A stretch of DNA of 20,676 nt from assembly GCA_029259115.1 (NCBI GenBank), contig JAPDJO010000065.1, positions 1-20,676 on the forward strand, in the 5' to 3' direction. Numbering within the stretch: position 1 is the stretch's first letter; the number at the start of each line of letters is the position of its first letter. A program made the position numbers and the translations under genes. The notes below the pieces were generated by a model. That model was not told where the DNA came from. It ran no database searches and saw only the letters and a program-made list of their open reading frames with translations. This stretch comes from Thermoplasmatota archaeon. GTDB taxonomy: Archaea > Thermoplasmatota > E2 > DHVEG-1 > B18-G2. This document shows, piece after piece, positions 1 to 20,676 of this stretch.

Positions 1-698
1 CCGGAAGAACATACGACCAGATAAGGATGTGTGTCGCTTATTCAAATATGAATGTCAAACTTTTCGTTACTCACGCAGGATTGAGCGTTGGTAAAGATGG
101 AGTAAGCCATCAGATGCTTGAGGATCTTGCTTTAATGAGGGTACTGCCGAACATGAAGGTCTTTGCTCCAAGTGACCCGTATCAAACAGGGAGAATAGCT
201 GAACTTATGGCTGAGAACTATGGGCCGATGTATGCAAGGATAGGCAGAGAACCAATGTATGTGATTTATGATAAAAAGGAGATCGAGGACATAGAGATAG
301 GAAAAGCAGTAGAGGTAAGAGATGGAGATGATGTAACAATCCTAGCTCATGGAACCATGCTCTACGAAGCCATAAAGGCGGCGGAGGAGCTTGAGAGGAA
401 AGGAATATCTGCCAGAGTTTTAGATATGTGGTCCATAAAACCATTTGACAGAGATGCTGTTCTCAGGTCAGCGAGGGATACGGGTAGAATTATCGTGGCT
501 GAGGAGCATTCTGTAATAGGCGGTCTTGGAAGTGCAGTATCTGAGTTTCTCATGGAAAGAGGAATAAATGTCAGGTTCAGGATGATAGGAATCAGGGATG
601 TATTCTGCGAATCCGGAGAGCCGTACGAACTTCTCAGAAAGTATGGTCTATCAAGAGAAAACATCATCAAAACAGCGGAGGAACTGGTGAAGGGATAG
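1..698 (+). CDS. Transketolase, C-terminal (pyrimidine-binding + C-terminal domain) subunit, 5'-truncated by window edge
   Basis: Frame is open from base 3 (GRTYDQIRM...). Motifs THAGLSVGKDGVSHQMLEDLALMR, GPMYARIGR, EEHSVIGGLGSAV and IGIRDVFCESG are typical of split archaeal transketolase beta subunits. Confidence 0.92.
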   Translation, partial: GRTYDQIRMCVAYSNMNVKLFVTHAGLSVGKDGVSHQMLEDLALMRVLPNMKVFAPSDPYQTGRIAELMAENYGPMYARIGREPMYVIYDKKEIEDIEIGKAVEVRDGDDVTILAHGTMLYEAIKAAEELERKGISARVLDMWSIKPFDRDAVLRSARDTGRIIVAEEHSVIGGLGSAVSEFLMERGINVRFRMIGIRDVFCESGEPYELLRKYGLSRENIIKTAEELVKG

Positions 699-705
699 TT
701 TTTTT
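699..705 (+). terminator. Oligo-T archaeal-type terminator (putative)
   Basis: T7 run immediately after the TAG stop of the transketolase gene. Confidence 0.45.
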
Positions 706-731
706 GAGATGTTTTATAGGCGATGATGGGT

Positions 732-827
732 ATTTCACTTAATGTTCCGAAGATAAATGAAGTTAAGCCGAAAGCTCAATTTGGGCGAAGTGGTAAAGCC
801 TTTTATCCGCTGTTGTGCGAAGTTGCC
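732..827 (-). mobile_element. attC-like integron cassette recombination site (degenerate R')
   Basis: Minus strand reads GGCAACTTC-GCACAAC(R'')-AGCGGATAAAAGG...TTGAGC-TTTCG-GCTTAA...CATTTATCTTCGGAAC-ATTAAGT(R', ATT instead of GTT)-GAAAT. GATAAA/TTTATC form inner arms and there is a central hairpin. It starts 7 nt after the stop codon of the 835..3156 gene. Confidence 0.65.
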
Positions 828-834
828 GAGATTC

Positions 835-3156
835 TTAGGAAAATATTCCCTGAATTTCAACGTAGTTAATATTACCGTTTTTAATATCTTCTTTTAGAGC
901 CTCTTTAATTTCTCCTTTCGCAGAGAAATATATAATTTGCCATCCTAATTCAGAAATTTTCCTTAACATTTCAATTTGTCGTTGTAACCTATCTGGATCA
1001 GCTTTTATGAATGGGTCATCCATAATAAAAAATCCTTTTTTGTCTTTCAAGAGTTTTTCTCCAAGGGCAAGTCGAATAGAAAGATATAATTGGTCGTATG
1101 CACCCCCTGATAGTTTTTCTGCTTCTAATATTACTCCATCCTTACGTTTAACTTCAATTTTCCCTGTCTCTTGATTAAAAGTAACTTCCTCATAAAGACC
1201 GTCTGTTATTTCATTAAAATACCTTGAAATGGGACTTTCCTTACCAAAAAGCTCAGAAACCTTTTCTTTTTCTTCTGCTTCTATTTCTTCAAAAATTTCT
1301 ATGAGTTCTAATACATCGTCTTTGTTACGTTCATTTTCATTTATAAACCTTTGCAGTTTCTCTTTAATTGCTTCCAGATCCACCAGTGTTTTGCAGTATA
1401 AATATTCCTTTTCCAATCGCAGAATTTCATTTGCCTTTCGCTCTACTTCCTCCATCTCTTTTTGAATCGATTTCATATTCTCTTTTAACGTTTCCAATTC
1501 TTGTTCAAGTTTCTGTCTTTTCTTTTCCAGCTTTGATGCAGTAGTTTCATTATATTTTACATCCTTTGCTTTATCCTTATACTCTTCCAGCTTTCTGATT
1601 TCTTCATCCCAAAATAGAATGTTTTCTTCTAATTCTTCGTCTTTTTTTCCAAAGTGGCTTTCCAAAACGCTTTTTTGGCTTTTGATTAACCCTTCAACTT
1701 CCTGTTTCGATTCAAGTCCCTTGCTATAGTCTTCCAAGGAATCTTTTCCTGACTTTATTTTTATCTCATTTATTTTCTTTTCAGTACCTTCAATCTTATC
1801 TTCTATTTCTGGTATGCATTTATCTCGTAATTCCTTGATTTTCTCTTCTAAATTTTCTTTTTTTATTTTCATCTCTTGTAGTTCAAGGTTTTTCTTTCTA
1901 TATACATCATCAAATTTCTGAACATTTGAAAGAATCTCCTCGATATCTGTAGCATCCAACTTAAATTTTGCGAGCTCAAACCTAATCCTTTCAAATTCTC
2001 GGGAAAGCCAAGCTTTATTGTTCACAAACTGGAACTTAAATATTACCGACACTCCCCCTAAGATTAAAAATAATATCGTCAAAATGTAAAATAATAATGA
2101 TGGACTGAAGATACAACCGAATAAAGATATTCCAAATAAAATTGTAGAAATTATTCCAAGTGGGGTAAAAAATTTGCTTTTACTTTCCTGTTGTACTAAC
2201 TCTATGCTTTTGCTCTCATAATTCTTCAAAGCGGGTCTAATTTCTTCGTCTAATTTTTTTCTTCTCCCTTCTAGAATCTGAAAATTTCCTTCTAATTCAC
2301 TTAATTTTTCGCTTATCTCCTTAAGTTCCCTTTCTTTTTCCTTAAGTTCAGCAAGTAATTTTTCTTTTTCCTTACTATATCTTTTGATGTCTTTCTCACT
2401 ATCTCTCCATAATTGCTCATCTTCCTCATTGTAAATATTCAAATCCTTAAGTTTTTCTAATGCCTTTTTGAGATTGTCCAGCGCTTTTTTCCCTTCCTCG
2501 TATTTTTCTCTTTTTCTGGCATCTTCAAAGTTTTTTATTTCTTGTTTAATCCTTTTTATCTCTTCTTCTAACCTTACAGACTCTTCTTCAAGTTCATCGA
2601 ATCCCTTTTCTTTAACCTCACTACTTAAACTCTCAATTTTCTCTATAAGCTTCTTCGCTTCTTCTACCCTTGTTTTTAATTTTTCATCTTTAATATCCCT
2701 AAACATGCCTGTTGGTGTTATTTTACCCATTTCCCTAAGAATCCCTTTTATTTTGGAGATTTCTTCCGTCCTTAACCCTGTGAGACGATCTGTTACATTG
2801 GTATAAAATTCACTCTCCCGAGCGATAGAGAGATCACTATTTCTTATCACGAAGATATTGCGACATTCTGAGGAAGTTAAATCTGCGATTTTTGTTAAAT
2901 TTCCCCTTTCTGGCAACTTGATTTCTTTACCTTTATCGTCTTCTATAATTACATAACCTTCTGGATTTTCCTCTACCCGATCTATGCGTTCAAAATCCCT
3001 GACATTTCGCCCCAATAATAACTTTACCAGAGCGTCTATTGTAAGCGTTTTACCATCTTCGTTTTTACCCCAAAATAGATTGAAATTATGTAGTGAGATT
3101 CTACCTGTATTCGGTAGAGGACCATATCGCATTATCGAGAATTCTTTTATTTTCAT
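835..3156 (-). CDS. SbcC/Rad50-like SMC-family ATPase of the YhaN (AAA_27)-type, with central transmembrane hairpin
   Basis: N-terminal Walker A (WGKNEDGKT), long coiled coils, ABC signature LSGG and Walker B FFIMDDPF. Two hydrophobic helices lie at aa ~329-375. Start overlaps the nuclease stop (ATGA). Confidence 0.88.
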   Translation of the reverse strand: MKIKEFSIMRYGPLPNTGRISLHNFNLFWGKNEDGKTLTIDALVKLLLGRNVRDFERIDRVEENPEGYVIIEDDKGKEIKLPERGNLTKIADLTSSECRNIFVIRNSDLSIARESEFYTNVTDRLTGLRTEEISKIKGILREMGKITPTGMFRDIKDEKLKTRVEEAKKLIEKIESLSSEVKEKGFDELEEESVRLEEEIKRIKQEIKNFEDARKREKYEEGKKALDNLKKALEKLKDLNIYNEEDEQLWRDSEKDIKRYSKEKEKLLAELKEKERELKEISEKLSELEGNFQILEGRRKKLDEEIRPALKNYESKSIELVQQESKSKFFTPLGIISTILFGISLFGCIFSPSLLFYILTILFLILGGVSVIFKFQFVNNKAWLSREFERIRFELAKFKLDATDIEEILSNVQKFDDVYRKKNLELQEMKIKKENLEEKIKELRDKCIPEIEDKIEGTEKKINEIKIKSGKDSLEDYSKGLESKQEVEGLIKSQKSVLESHFGKKDEELEENILFWDEEIRKLEEYKDKAKDVKYNETTASKLEKKRQKLEQELETLKENMKSIQKEMEEVERKANEILRLEKEYLYCKTLVDLEAIKEKLQRFINENERNKDDVLELIEIFEEIEAEEKEKVSELFGKESPISRYFNEITDGLYEEVTFNQETGKIEVKRKDGVILEAEKLSGGAYDQLYLSIRLALGEKLLKDKKGFFIMDDPFIKADPDRLQRQIEMLRKISELGWQIIYFSAKGEIKEALKEDIKNGNINYVEIQGIFS

Positions 3157-4217
3157 GATCTTACCTCCATCATTGCTTTTATTACCAGCTCACGCAATCG
3201 TTTCTTCTTTTCTTCATCGTAATCAGTTTGTTCAAGTTTCTTTATGAAGCTTTTAAACAAGTCATCTTCAAGTATTGCACGAATATCCTTGAATTCAAAA
3301 CGCTCTTCTGCTACCGATTTCCCTCTGATAATCTCTTTTATTTGTTTTACAAGTTCGGATTCACTTATTTTAATCTTCTCACTGTTAATATATCCCTTGG
3401 TTGCCAAGATAATACTTGCTTCAGAATGTACTCCTTTGAGATGTTCTTCTATTATCTCAACTGGATGTTTTTCTATAAAAGGGTCAAGTTCTATTACCAC
3501 TTCTTCAAAATGAAAAGTATCAAGAGGATATTCCTTAGGCGGCTTTCCAACTTCAAAAATATTTACTTTTCTTTGCCCTACTTCTCTTTTAGTTATTGAG
3601 ACAGGTGATCCGGGATAAACAAAGTATCCCCCATCTTCTAATGGCCATATATCAAATTTTGAATGGAGATGTCCAGCAAGCACATAGTCAACATTTAAAT
3701 CCTTGAAATAAGAAAGTTTGACAGGCATGTATCTTTTTTCACCTTCTTCTCCAAAATCTTTCCTTGAAAAGAATGCATCAAGCAATTCCCCATGATAGAG
3801 CAAGATATTTCTCTTATCTGTAGCTAAATTATTTTTTAATGAGTGGAGCTTATTGAGAATTTTCTCACCTTCTATGTCTTCAAAAGGTAATCCCCATATC
3901 ATTAGATCCTTATATTCAAAAGGTTCATCTAAATCCGTTAAAACAATTGTATCTTCACCAAAATACATACCGCTTTTATATGCTTCACTATCGTGATTTC
4001 CTGGAATTAAAATTATTTTGAAACCATTGTTTGAAAAAATTTTCCTTATTTTAGGTCTTAGAATTTCTGCATCAATGCCTTTATCAAAAAGGTCTCCACT
4101 TATCACGAAGAGTTCAATTTTTTCTTTCTTTCCAATCTCAATTAACCTTTGGAGGGTCTTCCACCTCTCATCTCCATATTCCCTCAAGTGAATATCTGCT
4201 GTATGAAGTATCTTCAT
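3153..4217 (-). CDS. Mre11/SbcD-family metallophosphoesterase DNA nuclease
   Basis: All calcineurin-like motifs are present: HTADIH, SGDLFD, PGNHD, YHG, GHLH, plus YPGSP. GGGTGA ribosome-binding site at 4224-4229. Confidence 0.92.
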   Translation of the reverse strand: MKILHTADIHLREYGDERWKTLQRLIEIGKKEKIELFVISGDLFDKGIDAEILRPKIRKIFSNNGFKIILIPGNHDSEAYKSGMYFGEDTIVLTDLDEPFEYKDLMIWGLPFEDIEGEKILNKLHSLKNNLATDKRNILLYHGELLDAFFSRKDFGEEGEKRYMPVKLSYFKDLNVDYVLAGHLHSKFDIWPLEDGGYFVYPGSPVSITKREVGQRKVNIFEVGKPPKEYPLDTFHFEEVVIELDPFIEKHPVEIIEEHLKGVHSEASIILATKGYINSEKIKISESELVKQIKEIIRGKSVAEERFEFKDIRAILEDDLFKSFIKKLEQTDYDEEKKKRLRELVIKAMMEVRS

Positions 4218-4237
4218 TTTTATTCACCCACTTTTAA

Positions 4238-4269
4238 GGCAATTTCGGACAACGAGTATTTCACACAAC
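4238..4269 (-). mobile_element. Cassette 5' core site (GTT box) with upstream tandem copy; attI-like
   Basis: Minus strand GTTGTGTGAAAT-ACTC-GTTGTCCGAAATTGCC. The downstream box (4238-4253) is a 14/16 inverted match to 812-827 (GTTGTGCGAAGTTGCC). Confidence 0.55.
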
Positions 4270-4472
4270 TTTTTATTCGTATAGTCTCTCAAAGGGAAGT
4301 TAAAGCGAAATTTTACAGAATCAAATTTCATGTAATTTCCATGGACTCAGATGTTAAAAATCTTACGTCACAAGAACGATATGATGCAATAGGAAAAGAT
4401 TTGTCTAGGTAGCAAAAAATTATCTGAAGATCCAAAATCCATCTAAAAACTGCGCCCTCCGTCCATCTACAC

Positions 4473-5588
4473 TCACTTCCTCGTCACAATCTGTATGACA
4501 TCTCCATCCATCAGGATATGATCGAGACCAACCTTCTGACCCTGATATTTGACTGATTTACCCCAGACCCGGGCATATTTGAACTTTCTTATGAAGTCCT
4601 TGTGAAGCCTCTTACAGACATCCTCTATCCTGTTGCCCTCTCTCAGTATCATCGGTTTTGAATAATCCACTTCTCCTTTTGGTGGCTTTGTAAATACTCT
4701 TATGAGCCTGAGATTCTCATATATCGCTTTCCTCAACTCTTCTATCCCATGTTTGTATTTTGCAGAAACAGGCAGAACTCTCCATCCCTTTGATTCTATG
4801 AATTTTACAGTTTCTTCAACCCTTTCTTCATCCGCCAGGTCTATCTTGTTGAGAACCACTATCGCAGGGATGTATACCCTATTACTCATGAAGGAATCTA
4901 TCAACTGCTCCTCTGTCAAATCATCTCTTATTATGATGTCCGCATTGACGAAATATTCGGATGCTATACCTCTTATCTCCCTTTCCGATAATCTGGTATC
5001 TGCTGGCTTGAATACTCTTATACCACCCTCCCCTCTTCTCACCACCTTAACATAAGGTTTCTCCTGATTCAATCTGAAACCAGCCTGATAAAGCTCTTTT
5101 GATATCACTTCCATCTGACTCTCCGCTCCCTCTATATCCAGTATTATTATCAGCATATCCATGGTTCGTAAGGCAGATAGAACCTCCCTTCCCCTCCCTC
5201 TTCCTTCAGATGCCCCTTCCAGTAATCCCGGAAAATCCAGTATCTGAATCTTTGCCCCATTGAACTCCATCATACCAGGAATCGCTTCGAGAGTGGTGAA
5301 ATCGTAGTCTCCTATTTTGCTTTCTCTTTCGACAAGCGCATTGAAAAGCGTACTTTTTCCAACACTTGGAAAACCAACTATGCCAACGCTTGCATCACCT
5401 TCTTTCTTCACGGAAAAACCTTTTCCCGGCCTTCCTTTCGATTTCGCTTCCCTCAGTTCTTCCCTGAGTCTCGCGAGCTTGGCTTTGAGTTTACCGAGAT
5501 GATGCTCCGTTGCTTTATTCTTCTGTGTCTTCAGAATCTCCTCTTCTATTTCCTTTATCTTCCTCTTTATCTCCTCAATGTCTGCCAT
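4473..5588 (-). CDS. drg: DRG/Rbg1 subfamily OBG GTPase with C-terminal TGS domain
   Basis: N-terminal TQKNKATEHHLGKLKAKLA, G1 GFPSVGKST, G2 YDFTTL, G3 DFPG, G4 NKID, and TGS tail GQKVGLDHILMDGDVIQI. Confidence 0.95.
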   Translation of the reverse strand: MADIEEIKRKIKEIEEEILKTQKNKATEHHLGKLKAKLARLREELREAKSKGRPGKGFSVKKEGDASVGIVGFPSVGKSTLFNALVERESKIGDYDFTTLEAIPGMMEFNGAKIQILDFPGLLEGASEGRGRGREVLSALRTMDMLIIILDIEGAESQMEVISKELYQAGFRLNQEKPYVKVVRRGEGGIRVFKPADTRLSEREIRGIASEYFVNADIIIRDDLTEEQLIDSFMSNRVYIPAIVVLNKIDLADEERVEETVKFIESKGWRVLPVSAKYKHGIEELRKAIYENLRLIRVFTKPPKGEVDYSKPMILREGNRIEDVCKRLHKDFIRKFKYARVWGKSVKYQGQKVGLDHILMDGDVIQIVTRK

Positions 5589-5589
5589 G

Positions 5590-6525
5590 CTACTTTGTTA
5601 TATGAGTCCCAGTTTCCCCTTTTAAAGCTTCCCATGCATGATCGATATCTGCTATTATTGCCCTCTCGCCACCATTCTCCAAGAATCTAATAGCTGCAAG
5701 AATCTTTGGACCCATGCTCCCAGCGGGAAAGTGTCCATCTTCGTAGAACTTTTTTATCTCTTCCAGATTAACCTTCCTCAAAGGTTCTTGATCCTCAGAT
5801 CCATAGTTGAGATATACGTAGGGAACATCAGTCAGAATAAGCAAAACATCTGCACCAATAGCCTCTGCAAGCCTCTCAGCAGAGAGATCTTTATCTACCA
5901 CCGCCTCTCTACCATCAAGACCCCATCCTTTTCTTTCTACAACCGGCATGCCTCCGCCGCCGGCTGCGATTACAATAATTCCATCATCAAGCAGGGCTTT
6001 GATTATGTTTGCTTCGATAATGGCTTTTGGATCAGGAGAAGGAACAACAATCCTCCATCCATTCTTTTGCTTTGTCATCTGATATCCGTCTTTGAGTAGC
6101 TTCAAAGCTTGGTCTTCGTTGAAATAAGGCCCTATAGGTTTCGTTGGATTTTCAAATGCAGGATCTTTATCATCAACAAGGACTTGAGTAACTATGGTAA
6201 CTACATCTTTGTTAATTCCTTCTTTTCTGAGAGCATTTGATAAGCACTGCTGAATCATATACCCAATCAACCCCTGACTTTCAGCGACGCATATCCCTAA
6301 AGGCATTGGAGGAACTAGATCTCTGCCAGCTTGGTTTTGGAGAAGTATAGCCCCTACCTGCGGACCATTACCATGGGTTAAAACAACATCCCAACCATCT
6401 TTTATGATTTTAACTATAGACTTAACGGTCTCTCTAGTATTTGCAAACTGTTCATATATAGTTCCTTTCTGTCCAGGCTTAATTAAAGCATTGCCTCCAA
6501 GTGCTATCACTGCTCTCTTTGTCAT
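5590..6525 (-). CDS. arcC: Carbamate kinase
   Basis: Motifs VIALGGNAL, THGNGPQVG, SQGLIGY, NPTKPIGP, VVPSPDP, EAVVDKD and GSMGPK. Confidence 0.96.
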   Translation of the reverse strand: MTKRAVIALGGNALIKPGQKGTIYEQFANTRETVKSIVKIIKDGWDVVLTHGNGPQVGAILLQNQAGRDLVPPMPLGICVAESQGLIGYMIQQCLSNALRKEGINKDVVTIVTQVLVDDKDPAFENPTKPIGPYFNEDQALKLLKDGYQMTKQKNGWRIVVPSPDPKAIIEANIIKALLDDGIIVIAAGGGGMPVVERKGWGLDGREAVVDKDLSAERLAEAIGADVLLILTDVPYVYLNYGSEDQEPLRKVNLEEIKKFYEDGHFPAGSMGPKILAAIRFLENGGERAIIADIDHAWEALKGETGTHITK

Positions 6526-6546
6526 GTATGGGAAAATTACAGATGC

Positions 6547-8055: not shown

Positions 8056-8909
8056 GCTACAGCAACGCCTATAAGAACTATTGATGCAAAAACGATATCT
8101 CTTACACTCAAAATTTCTCCGAGCATGAAATAAGAAAATATGATAGCGAATACCGGAATAAGGTATGTGAATATTATAAGGTGAGACAGTTCTTCTTCGT
8201 AGAGTATCATGTAGTAGAGAATAGCAGCAATAAAGCTAGCCAATATAGACAGGAGAAGAATATAGATCCATACATCCATGCTGAAAGAAAATATCATACT
8301 CATGTCCTCTAAGAAGATATTCGAAGCAAGGAGCATGAAGAAGCCAAATGTTGTTTCGAAGCAGAGCAAATCAAAAGCTGGAATCTTTGATAGACCTTTT
8401 TTCAGTATAATTCCAGATATTGCATAAGATATGCTAGATACGAGTATCAAAGTGTTACCAAATGTATTGAGATCAAAAGAGAGGCTGCCCTTAGTTGATA
8501 AGAGTATTGTTCCAGTTAAAGCAATGAGCGAACCTATGATCTTGTTAATGGTTTTAGTTTCTTTCAGAAAGATAAATGCCAGAATAATCGTAAAAACTGG
8601 ACTTGTGGACTGAATGACACTTGATATCGATGCAGTAGTATAAAGCATCCCAATGTTTTGGGATATGTTTGGAAGGAATATTGTAAAGAAAGCTAGTGTG
8701 AGAAATAGCTTTAGATCCTCCTTGGAATAATTCTTATAGCTCTTTCTTAAAATCACGATGATTAGCATGGGGATAAAAACTATATGTCGAAGTGTTGCCA
8801 ATGTTATCGGAGGTACTCCGTAGTTTAATAGTAACTTTACAAGAGGATAACTAAGGCCCCATATAAGCATTGAGATCAAGATCAGTATAGTTTTAATGCT
8901 GTCCCTCAT
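8025..8909 (-). CDS. DMT/EamA family transporter
   Basis: About 10 hydrophobic helices in two repeats; motifs IWGLSYP, SPVFTIILAFIFLKE and LIPVFAIIFSYFMLGE. Confidence 0.92.
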   Translation of the reverse strand: MRDSIKTILILISMLIWGLSYPLVKLLLNYGVPPITLATLRHIVFIPMLIIVILRKSYKNYSKEDLKLFLTLAFFTIFLPNISQNIGMLYTTASISSVIQSTSPVFTIILAFIFLKETKTINKIIGSLIALTGTILLSTKGSLSFDLNTFGNTLILVSSISYAISGIILKKGLSKIPAFDLLCFETTFGFFMLLASNIFLEDMSMIFSFSMDVWIYILLLSILASFIAAILYYMILYEEELSHLIIFTYLIPVFAIIFSYFMLGEILSVRDIVFASIVLIGVAVAQLKSRTFGK

Positions 8910-20450: not shown

Positions 20451-20527
20451 TTTAAACACTTAAATCCACAAAAAGTTGACAGTCTCATTACAGGGCGCTG
20501 TCAACATTAGTCTGAAAGAATAAAAAT

Positions 20528-20588
20528 AATTGCACCCCATTCCTCTTGCTCGAGGTGATATCCAAATGGAGGGGAATGGGGTGCAATT
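20528..20588. repeat. 16-bp perfect inverted repeat over the second transposase start region
   Basis: AATTGCACCCCATTCC (20528-20543) and GGAATGGGGTGCAATT (20573-20588). Confidence 0.9.
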
Positions 20589-20676
20589 GTTAAGAGATTT
20601 GTTGAGAGAAAAATCTATCGTCATAAGAGAAAGAACACCTGTAGAGATTATCCTCTACAGCGTGTTCCTTTACCTC
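20566..20676 (+). CDS. Probable IS6-family transposase, N-terminal part (3'-truncated by window edge)
   Basis: MEGNGVQLLRDLLREKSIVIRERTPVEIILYSVFLYL... parallels the first transposase's N-terminus (DRKNLEIKVLAVLIY). GAGGTGA precedes ATG 20566; alternative GTG start at 20581. Confidence 0.7.
   Translation, partial: MEGNGVQLLRDLLREKSIVIRERTPVEIILYSVFLYL

Follow-up and report, generated by a model that had tools for sequence, protein, structure and literature searches.

A Mre11/Rad50-like gene pair carried as a probable integron-type cassette in a Thermoplasmatota archaeon

The attC sites of integron cassettes have an inverse core, RYYYAAC, at their 5′ end and a core, GTTRRRY, at their 3′ end. 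The subject of this study is a 20,676-nucleotide stretch of DNA (the window) in which two genes resembling those for the nuclease Mre11 and the ATPase Rad50 lie between genes for a transketolase and a DRG-type GTPase. We consider it likely that positions 743-4252 (minus strand) form a single integron-type gene cassette, inserted between these two genes in a Thermoplasmatota archaeon and similar to the units known as SALINs. In bacteria, such single attC sites lacking an integron-integrase (SALINs), and insertion by recombination between attC and attG, are known (bioRxiv 10.1101/2022.09.11.507474). In archaea, integrons and attC clusters have been described from 75 metagenome-assembled genomes (MAGs) of nine phyla, in a survey that excluded singleton attCs (Ghaly et al., 2022, Sci Adv, PMC9668308). 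For the cargo, the closest described proteins are SbcE (YhaN) and SbcF (YhaO) of B. subtilis, which have no CxxC motif and have a hydrophobic, insoluble central domain; SbcEF contributes to double-strand-break repair and to transformation, and in competent cells foci of SbcF are seen at the pole (PMC2811018).

The locus resembles the SALINs, as characterised in the main account of these elements, in that one coding unit is accompanied by one attC-type site, with no other site in the assembly and no integron integrase (IntI) gene nearby or in the genome, in that the GTT-containing target lies outside a classical integron, and in that an empty site is seen in relatives. It differs in its archaeal host, in its two genes and length of ~3.5 kb, in a target that has further core-like boxes and other cargo in relatives and hence resembles a small platform rather than a random GWT site, and in that no canonical IntI was found beside its type of site in the stretches examined. 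With the archaeal integrons and attC clusters (CALINs) it shares the presence of attC-type sites in archaeal MAGs, the sharing of cassettes across domains and an association with the restriction and toxin-antitoxin cargo that is common there; the IntIs described in the main text of that survey, however, possess the IntI-specific domain, and none such was found here. The word Thermoplasmatota does not occur in that main text. Co-oriented arrays of open reading frames (ORFs) and sites, as in integrons, were found in other loci carrying the pair, whereas an IntI with the specific domain beside such an array was not. An accessory nucleic-acid enzyme carried as a cassette near GmrSD and AAA_15 ATPase genes also recalls the anti-phage cassette systems, although the words SbcC, SMC and Rad50 are absent from the main text of that study and a defence role for the pair is our inference (bioRxiv 10.1101/2024.07.02.601686). 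No printed description of an SbcCD-type integron cassette was found, but the supplementary lists of both works (data S1 and S6 of PMC9668308; those of bioRxiv 10.1101/2024.07.02.601686) may include this cassette or its site family.

The window is contig C19 of the host assembly, G000, a MAG of 1.40 Mb (1,397,555 bases) in 94 contigs that is 98.7% complete with 5.48% contamination. It was compared with 30 relatives from the host's order, with a bacterial genome (G031) that holds locus L072, with fetched loci carrying the prefix L (10 from genomes and 26 from metagenomes, the window itself being WIN) and with contigs from public sequencing runs (X1, X3, X5 and X8), the last over window positions 300-5000; parts of the window without X3 or X5 contig cover carry no meaning.

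The pair is widespread: at 70-96% protein identity it recurs on contigs assigned to numerous phyla of both domains. Among 6554 candidates the Mre11-like protein has 2593 relatives at E<=0.001, the best 120 of them 69-96% identical to it, and the ATPase has 804 relatives, the best 120 being 56-100% identical. Their source names include Altiarchaeales, Methanophagales and Aenigmatarchaeota as well as Aerophobetes, Atribacteria, Glassbacteria, Chloroflexi, Deltaproteobacteria and Armatimonadetes, and many of the contigs are merely 3-4.4 kb long, scarcely longer than the pair. Throughout L070-L077 both genes are adjacent and their order is unchanged. In L072, L081, L082 and L084 the pair lies among co-oriented ORFs, and the unrelated ORFs are each followed by the same type of site; there are four such sites in L081, three each in L082, L084 and L072, and one in the window, all on the cassette strand. 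The earlier note on this DNA, made from the sequence of the window, had named the presence of close homologs in attC arrays as a check of the cassette idea, and both proteins do sit in arrays of the same site type. The neighbouring cassettes encode a GmrSD-type restriction domain (GmrSD_N), an AAA_15 ATPase, a helicase fragment and an RNase H-fold protein, while six of the ten neighbouring cassette proteins belong to no Pfam family.

The ends of the unit are equally constant. A 5′ box of the form GTTRNNY-GAAATTGCC is found ~40 nt before the ATG in nine of 12 aligned loci, and the DNA upstream of its GTT is unrelated between locus groups. At the conserved 3′ end, (A)AATGTTA-GGCAACTTC-GCACAAC follows directly after the stop codon; the GGCAACTTC extension is kept in this position in WIN, L070, L072, L081, L082 and L100, and in WIN, L072, L081, L082 and L085 the 3′ end runs on for ~80 nt, closing in ..AAC-GTTATAC or a variant of it. 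Because the same 5′ box and 3′ sequence recur across loci with unrelated DNA outside them, the pair can be regarded as a mobile unit with shared boundaries and, judged by sequence, as a discrete one common to bacterial and archaeal lineages. More distant homologs (~35-69% identity, e.g. L075-L079 and L090-L099) are without these conserved ends and may be resident versions of the genes.

A 16-nt imperfect inverted repeat tightly bracketing the two genes had first drawn attention to the locus, and it was found again exactly as described. Plus-strand positions 812-827 read GTTGTGCGAAGTTGCC and positions 4238-4253 read GGCAATTTCGGACAAC, the reverse complement of the latter agreeing with the former at 14 of 16 positions; the right arm begins 36 nt before the ATG of the Mre11-like gene (4217) and the left arm lies 7 nt after the stop codon of the Rad50-like gene (835-837). 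These two arms are the two conserved boundary boxes, namely the 5′ box and the 3′ extension with its adjoining R″ motif. In the whole assembly, on both strands and at up to two mismatches, each arm matches only itself and its partner. The repeat has no exact run longer than 5 nt and therefore escaped a repeat search with a seed of 8. In all five units compared, GGCAACTTC-GCACAAC is better complemented by the 5′ box of the same unit than by the box that follows the site (14 v 9, 13 v 6, 15 v 9, 10 v 6 and 11 v 8), which is the pattern that a cassette linearised at its own core would show.

The sites that follow the pair and its array neighbours have a common architecture: RYYYAAC, a single base, an arm of 11-12 nt, a middle part ..CGCCCAAATT..CCTTCGG..ACTTC, the complementary arm, five bases (NNAAC or NAGAC) and finally GTTRRRY-GAAAT. 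AAC and GTT are near-invariant across the family, in keeping with the two attC cores (R″ is, for example, GCCTAAC, GGCTAAC, GTATAAC or GCACAAC, and R′ GTTAGGC, GTTAGGT, GTTGTGC or GTTATAC). The palindrome, as expected of attC sites, is held by structure rather than by sequence. Among 14 sites the L helix is 81.5% paired, with eight of its 12 pairs changed on both sides; among 11 sites that belong to other cassettes the stems are 85.5% paired and 12 of 19 pairs are altered on both sides, the L helix being 88.5% paired with eight of 12 changed. These 11 sites have a covariation score of 0.440; shuffled ones score 0.200, with none of 500 attaining the observed value, and sliding the pairing partners gives at most 0.122. 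In all 20 sites compared, DNA folding is predicted to be more stable on the bottom strand, which concerns folding and not recombination; the intact L082 site reaches -19.6 kcal/mol on this strand (0 of 200 shuffles as good) and the stretch L082 2593-2697 reaches -22.1 kcal/mol (1 of 200). The predicted folds contain a one-sided bulge of 4-5 nt between the R and L stems.

Two covariance models were built from these sites. R1, made from 14 sites, had 20 matches when 36 sources were searched; every one was on the strand of the cassette, and three lay outside the training set (the search left out L087, L092 and L102). R2 was made only from sites of other, unrelated cassettes, with the window and all sites of this cassette excluded. 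It matches the window at 727-828 (minus strand) with 55.8 bits (E 4.8e-11), the runner-up in the window scoring 11.2 bits, so that the test of an attC covariance model proposed in the earlier note has, with a model of our own making, a positive outcome. The window site is the sole R1 or R2 match in its whole assembly. Sites of the R2 type occur in ten of the 30 relatives from the host's order, at one to three each and none within the same genus, and in 23 of 41 bacterial relatives of G031, at up to 26 per genome, with several per contig and strand. Rfam, at its gathering threshold, has no match in the window, and a crude hairpin finder, which gives many false positives in AT-rich DNA, overlooked the window's own site. 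A strict RYYYAAC/GTTRRRY variant of it had no match even within the arrays and a looser one told little about the surroundings of the IntI genes, so that none of the three bears on the conclusions.

A second conserved non-coding element lies directly upstream of the GTT core of some cassettes (L082 ~3880-3935, L083 ~950-1000, L084 ~160-290 and L072 ~8170-8270) and consists of two short hairpins around ..GGTATA.. and ..AAAATGGGARTATAWGCGA..TCG..TAT... It could represent a further site class, or else something resembling attI.

That the pair was inserted between two housekeeping genes is seen directly in relatives. Six DRG loci were inspected. In G005, G006 and G008 the transketolase and DRG genes are convergent and directly adjacent, with few bases between their stop codons; G007 is rearranged, G022 has no transketolase match in the fetched stretch, and the sister species G003 has other genes at this place. 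A contig from DNA run X3 (depth 32) joins window position 712 to 4470, and a contig from the RNA library X8, of the same sample, joins 697 to 4471 with six other letters between, the flanks of these empty-site contigs differing by ~5-7% from the window. These two joints indicate that a close relative has an empty site and that the inserted DNA is 713-4469. The two-ORF insertion between transketolase and DRG postulated in the earlier note, and the empty site that it anticipated in relatives, are therefore both observed, and the vertical synteny that would have spoken against a cassette is not: the pair was not found in the relatives searched. The nuclease query had no match in the five relatives searched with it (G001-G004 and G007), and the ATPase query had weak partial matches (25-31% identity) in only five of the 30 relatives, which by their frame lengths are probably the relatives' own Rad50 genes. 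The host genome itself has a canonical Rad50 on contig C20 (a 720-aa frame, 105 + 73 bits) and an SMC gene on C3, and since these lie elsewhere the window pair is an extra one. When the two intergenic stretches were used as DNA queries against G000-G004, no additional copy came to light; the single genuine match was to contig C86 of G003.

The inserted DNA extends 219 nt beyond the cassette on the DRG side, and this part is partly shared with G003. There, GTGAAATACAC-GTTGTCCGAAATT recurs, but the leader and the ORF behind it are different ones, the ORF (MKDKKNLNYGGTGWHIY...) being cut off by the contig end. An X8 contig likewise follows the window down to 4251 and then continues in unrelated sequence, the break falling at the GTT core. 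The X8 contigs cover parts of the cassette, which is not evidence of transcription, as DNA is possible in an RNA library and contigs give no strand. Compared by eye, the boxes on the two sides of the cassette, ATTAAGTGAAATACCC after it and GTTGTGTGAAATACTC before it, agree at 12 of 16 positions, and R2 scores a weak 11.2 bits (E 0.9) over 4237-4288 (minus strand). The joints of X3 and X8, the window, and G003 together with the X8 contig show the locus in three states: empty, filled by the nuclease pair and filled by other cargo. The region downstream of DRG looks like a small cassette platform rather than a random target. Two side observations concern this region: contigs from X1 and X3 match the window rightwards from 4298/4299 and are two different sequences leftwards of this point, which on the minus strand lies at ..TTTAAC|TTCCC..; and the 57-nt segment 4325-4381 is 95% identical between G000 and G003, above the neighbouring DRG coding sequence (85%). 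The coordinates of all features are collected in Table 1.

Table 1. Features at the transketolase-DRG locus of the window, with strand and the evidence or details for each
Feature	Positions	Strand	Evidence or details
Transketolase, C-terminal part, cut off at the window start	3..698	+	Pfam Transketolase_C 8.6e-38, Transket_pyr 4.9e-18
Native 3′ flank of transketolase, retained in the empty-site form	699..712		X3 contig joint 712->4470; similarity to G003 up to 722
Box after the cassette, ATTAAGT (degenerate GTTRRRY core, 743-737) + GAAATACCC; junction with the recipient site	728..743	-	alignment to the site family
attC-type site, decayed	737..818	-	R″ GCACAAC 818-812; L″ 810-799; branched middle ~798-763; L′ 760-749; spacer GGAAC 748-744; R′ ATTAAGT 743-737
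Conserved 9-nt extension 5′ of R″, GGCAACTTC; with R″, the left repeat arm (812-827)	819..827	-	conservation after the stop codon
Rad50/SbcC-like ABC ATPase, SbcE/YhaN type, 773 aa	835..3156	-	Walker A 30-37, LSGG 682, FFIMDD 709, hydrophobic hairpin 328-379, no CxxC
Mre11/SbcD-like metallophosphoesterase, 354 aa	3153..4217	-	DIH 8, GDLF 41, GNHD 73, GHLH 182; end overlaps the ATPase start by 4 nt
Short leader within the mobile unit; purine-rich stretch GGGTGA ahead of the ATG	4218..4237	-	conserved with L081, L082, L084, L086, L072
Cassette 5′ box, GTTGTCC core (4253-4247) + GAAATTGCC (4246-4238); the right repeat arm	4238..4253	-	flank alignment
Second box GTTGTGTGAAATACTC, directly upstream of the cassette, recipient platform	4254..4269	-	conserved in G003 (L045 83-113 ~ window 4241-4271, 90%)
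Genome-specific stretch, possible half site (..AACTTC..GTTGTGT)	4270..4324	-	absent from G003
Non-coding segment, part of the inserted platform	4325..4381		95% to G003; absent from the empty-site form
Remaining inserted DNA up to the DRG stop codon	4382..4469		skipped by joints 712->4470, 697->4471
DRG-type GTPase (MMR_HSR1, TGS), housekeeping flank, same direction as the cassette	4473..5588	-	Pfam

The explanation that we favour is that the unit is a promoter-poor two-gene cassette, opening in a GTT core and closing in its own attC-type site. In the circular form, the 5′ box (GTTGTCC-GAAATTGCC) would come to lie behind the 3′ site and would pair with GGCAACTTC-GCACAAC to form the base of a bottom-strand hairpin. 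A tyrosine recombinase supplied in trans would then have joined the folded site to a GTT-containing target downstream of DRG, and the acceptance of other cargo by the same target region in a sister species and in a related population would make of it a small cassette platform. With the decay of its site, and with no suitable recombinase in the genome, the cassette would now be fixed.

A number of observations weigh against this explanation, beginning with the window's own copy of the site. Of the ~80-bp palindrome described in the earlier note, the ending in AAC-ATTAAGTGAAAT (the stretch closes ...GGAAC-ATTAAGTGAAAT) and a 12-bp stem stand, but neither 699-834 nor 727-828 folds more stably than its shuffled versions, whichever strand is taken (dG -5.7 to -7.3 kcal/mol, z +0.6 to +1.1). 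The L stem has two mismatches (10 of 12 pairs), and R′ opens with A and not G. The inverted repeat taken alone is marginal: when the intergenic stretches 699-834 and 4218-4472 are shuffled with dinucleotides preserved, 51 of 2000 trials give at least 14 of 16 matches (P = 0.026, uncorrected for other gene pairs). The insertion 713-4469 is ~250 nt longer than the cassette. In the site family as a whole, the spacing of 1 nt between R″ and L″ against 5 nt between L′ and R′, with a paired region that reaches 9 nt beyond the R boxes, is unlike that of the textbook attC, and R1 and R2 were built from sites chosen within this analysis and are not public attC models. The MAG has an estimated contamination of 5.48%. 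Finally, the enzyme is missing. At the TIGR02249 cut-off an IntI is absent from all 31 genomes searched in the host's order and from G000; R2 has no match in 12 IntI-bearing stretches, nor was a canonical IntI found near any site of this type; and the recombinases that do lie beside sites (G017:C182, G035:C62, G057:C82 and G046:C31) are without the IntI-specific part of the profile and are all broken. On balance, the reading of the locus as an integron cassette, which the earlier note had put forward, is supported. As the window copy of the site has decayed and no suitable recombinase is present in the genome, the cassette is probably immobile now.

The absence of an integrase from the cassette, noted earlier from the window, was found to extend to the whole genome, whose two tyrosine recombinase genes score at best 30.7 bits on TIGR02249 (cut-off 265); nor was a recombinase of the type present in G017 found there. 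The proposal in the earlier note that an IntI encoded elsewhere mobilised the cassette in trans fared less well: no canonical IntI adjoins this type of site in the stretches examined. A possible alternative, which we regard as having a minor share of the probability, is that the site family is served not by integron integrases but by a Xer-type tyrosine recombinase without the IntI-specific domain. R2-type sites lie ~0.6-1.7 kb from members of a distinct recombinase clade in one archaeon (G017) and on the three other contigs named above. In G017 the best site (80 bits) stands behind a 153-aa ORF without a family match, itself behind a recombinase gene with two in-frame stops. The enzymes of this clade, like that of G011, score best on XerA_Arch (207 bits for G017 and 209 for G011, cut-off 220), and their alignment to TIGR02249 falls into two pieces with profile positions 180-237 uncovered, which is roughly where the IntI-specific insertion lies; the archaeal G017 enzyme is closer to the bacterial copies (57-64% identity) than to other archaeal ones (45-53%). 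The lack of R2 matches beside the 12 canonical IntI genes points the same way. Against this alternative, all of the adjacent copies are truncated or contain stop codons, the adjacencies number just four and come from related data sets, and the sole intact relative of the G017-type enzyme (G062:C80, 46% identical) belongs to a genome without R2 matches. Canonical IntI above cut-off is moreover present in 11 of the 41 bacterial genomes of the site-rich clade around G031, seven of which also have sites, and the missing IntI adjacency is weak evidence since MAG contigs tend to break at arrays.

The layout in G017 (L134, G017:C182, 2428-4088), with recombinase, 153-aa ORF and site on one strand, is integron-like, but the recombinase is co-oriented, broken and without the IntI insertion. 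Strong TIGR02249 matches in G017, G011 and G022 were considered as IntI and rejected, the family scan identifying them as XerA/Xer-like enzymes without the IntI-specific part, and a recombinase near sites on G031:C441 is an ordinary XerD, whose adjacency was treated as chance.

It is unlikely that the pair instead belongs to a larger integrative island which another recombinase directed to the 3′ end of DRG and in which the attC-like site is a passive relic. The insertion does reach the DRG stop codon, with a joint at 4470, and the 219 nt outside the cassette would find an explanation; in G003, too, a block of four genes is flanked by DRG on one side and, on the other, by a second copy (76% identical) of the final ~118 nt of that gene, as 3′-end integration usually leaves behind. 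The window, however, has no second copy of the DRG 3′ end, the G003 block lies on the opposite side of the shared platform segment and is thus a separate event, and the changes of cargo fall at the GTT core and not at DRG. The G003 block (L045, G003:C86; repeats at 156-271 and 3483-3600, genes at 294-3388), which looks like another element integrated at the DRG 3′ end, encodes a TauE-type exporter, two HhH-GPD glycosylases and one unknown gene.

We think it very improbable that the 3′ element is no more than a common repeated extragenic palindrome or a terminator, with unspecific horizontal transfer having spread the pair and chance having produced the 16-nt repeat: the marginal P of the repeat (~0.026), the poor folding of the window copy and the frequency of hairpins behind genes would allow it, but the site accompanies the pair in both domains, with the GTT and AAC boxes as constant boundaries, stands behind unrelated genes in arrays, is the more stable on its bottom strand in every one of the 20 sites, and has other cargo at the same core. 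Least credible of all is the view that the pair is the archaeon's own vertically inherited Mre11-Rad50, or that the contig is a chimera of binning or assembly, for although Mre11 and Rad50 are universal in archaea and the MAG has its measured contamination, the canonical Rad50 is encoded on C20, the relatives searched lack the pair, both flanks retain the archaeal gene order, and a 3011-nt X1 contig identical over 582-3592 bridges transketolase and cassette (X1 may be the source sample and not independent).

With the cassette as the preferred reading, its cargo can be considered. The nuclease, whose metal-binding motifs are intact, matches Pfam Metallophos (4.7e-19, 70 bits) and TIGR00619 sbcD (2.4e-15, 57 bits against a cut-off of 77.65), and all SbcD and Mre11 models remain below their cut-offs on it; the ATPase matches the NCBIfam Rad50 models at 2.7e-11 and 2.8e-10 (42 bits against cut-offs of 700-1000). 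The nearest solved structures in the PDB are SbcD for the nuclease (1.4e-6) and Rad50 heads for the ATPase (2.2e-7). The ATPase has long heptad-rich arms and the head motifs of canonical Rad50/SbcC, but no CxxC in its central third; a central hydrophobic stretch of ~50 residues is present in all 121 family members compared, and a mid-protein CxxC in one of the 121. Pfam AAA_27, which we take to be the YhaN-type domain, scores below cut-off on the protein (19.5 against 22 bits), and among the matches listed it is carried by 52-100% of members in the eight nearest Atlas clusters. With SbcCD and Mre11-Rad50 the pair shares phosphoesterase motifs I-III and GHxH, Walker A, LSGG, Walker B and long coiled coils; it differs in falling far below the curated cut-offs, in having a hydrophobic hairpin for the zinc hook and in the separate canonical Rad50 of the genome. 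It is closer to SbcE/SbcF as these are described in PMC2811018, an SbcD-like gene beside an SbcC-like SMC ATPase that has no CxxC and a hydrophobic centre, from which the window pair differs in being nuclease-first, in its 773-aa ATPase and in having no yhaM-like gene; SbcEF, furthermore, is a resident repair and competence factor and not a cassette. The cargo is accordingly classed, by predicted protein features, as an SbcF/SbcE (YhaO/YhaN)-type pair with a hydrophobic hairpin in place of the zinc hook. It most likely encodes an ATP-driven nuclease, predicted to cut DNA ends or hairpins at the membrane, and it is the array neighbours that suggest a role against incoming foreign DNA. An assignment to Lamassu, Wadjet or Dnd was tried and rejected, the PADLOC matches being weak and partial (LmuB 38 bits, JetC, DndD and PDC-S10).

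Some other copies of the pair show irregularities. On an Omnitrophota chromosome (L078, CP070807.1) the Mre11-like gene is in two pieces ~4.2 kb apart (1224-1819 and 6001-6531) and the ATPase match comprises the first 27 residues only, making this a disrupted copy. In L073 (~4730-4808) and L088 (~4920-5000) the leader before the annotated ATG of the nuclease resembles a second copy of the protein's own N-terminus (..KILHTADIHLG..), which could be a duplicated start or a frameshifted longer one.

The transketolase is 96% identical to that of G003 and 59-67% identical to those of G005, G006 and G008. DRG is present in all 31 genomes searched, its nearest named homologs come from Thermoplasmata or Thermoplasmatota, and the relatives have an archaeal gene content (proteasome, SBDS and exosome genes); from the source names of these homologs and from this gene content, the host is identified as a Thermoplasmatota archaeon. 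A scan of the window with ARAGORN found no tRNAs. At 20515-20595 (minus strand) the crude hairpin finder reported an 18-19-bp stem, possibly a terminator, that does not belong to the site family (no R1 or R2 match).

With its boundaries resolved, its empty site observed and other cargo seen at the same place, this archaeal single cassette is a further case of known phenomena, those of SALINs and of archaeal integrons. It has the merit that the empty, filled and alternatively filled site can all be observed, which is beyond the reach of single-genome surveys, and the archaeal integron survey, as its main account describes it, would have missed such events because singleton attCs were excluded. 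The cargo, a two-gene SMC-nuclease module common to both domains, is unusually large for a cassette, and its distribution means that a complete SMC-nuclease machine of ~3.5 kb can pass between the two domains in the form of a single cassette. More speculatively, and with considerable doubt, the region downstream of DRG could be a working integrase-less platform, the site family could be recombined by a cross-domain Xer-like clade, and the cargo could be a membrane-anchored defence module that has spread as a 3.5-kb cassette. The absent IntI link and the repeated adjacency to broken Xer-like recombinases raise a testable question, namely which enzyme serves this abundant family of sites, and the cargo family, which is uncharacterised outside the work on SbcEF of B. 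subtilis, is a plausible candidate for a function in defence or DNA uptake at the membrane.

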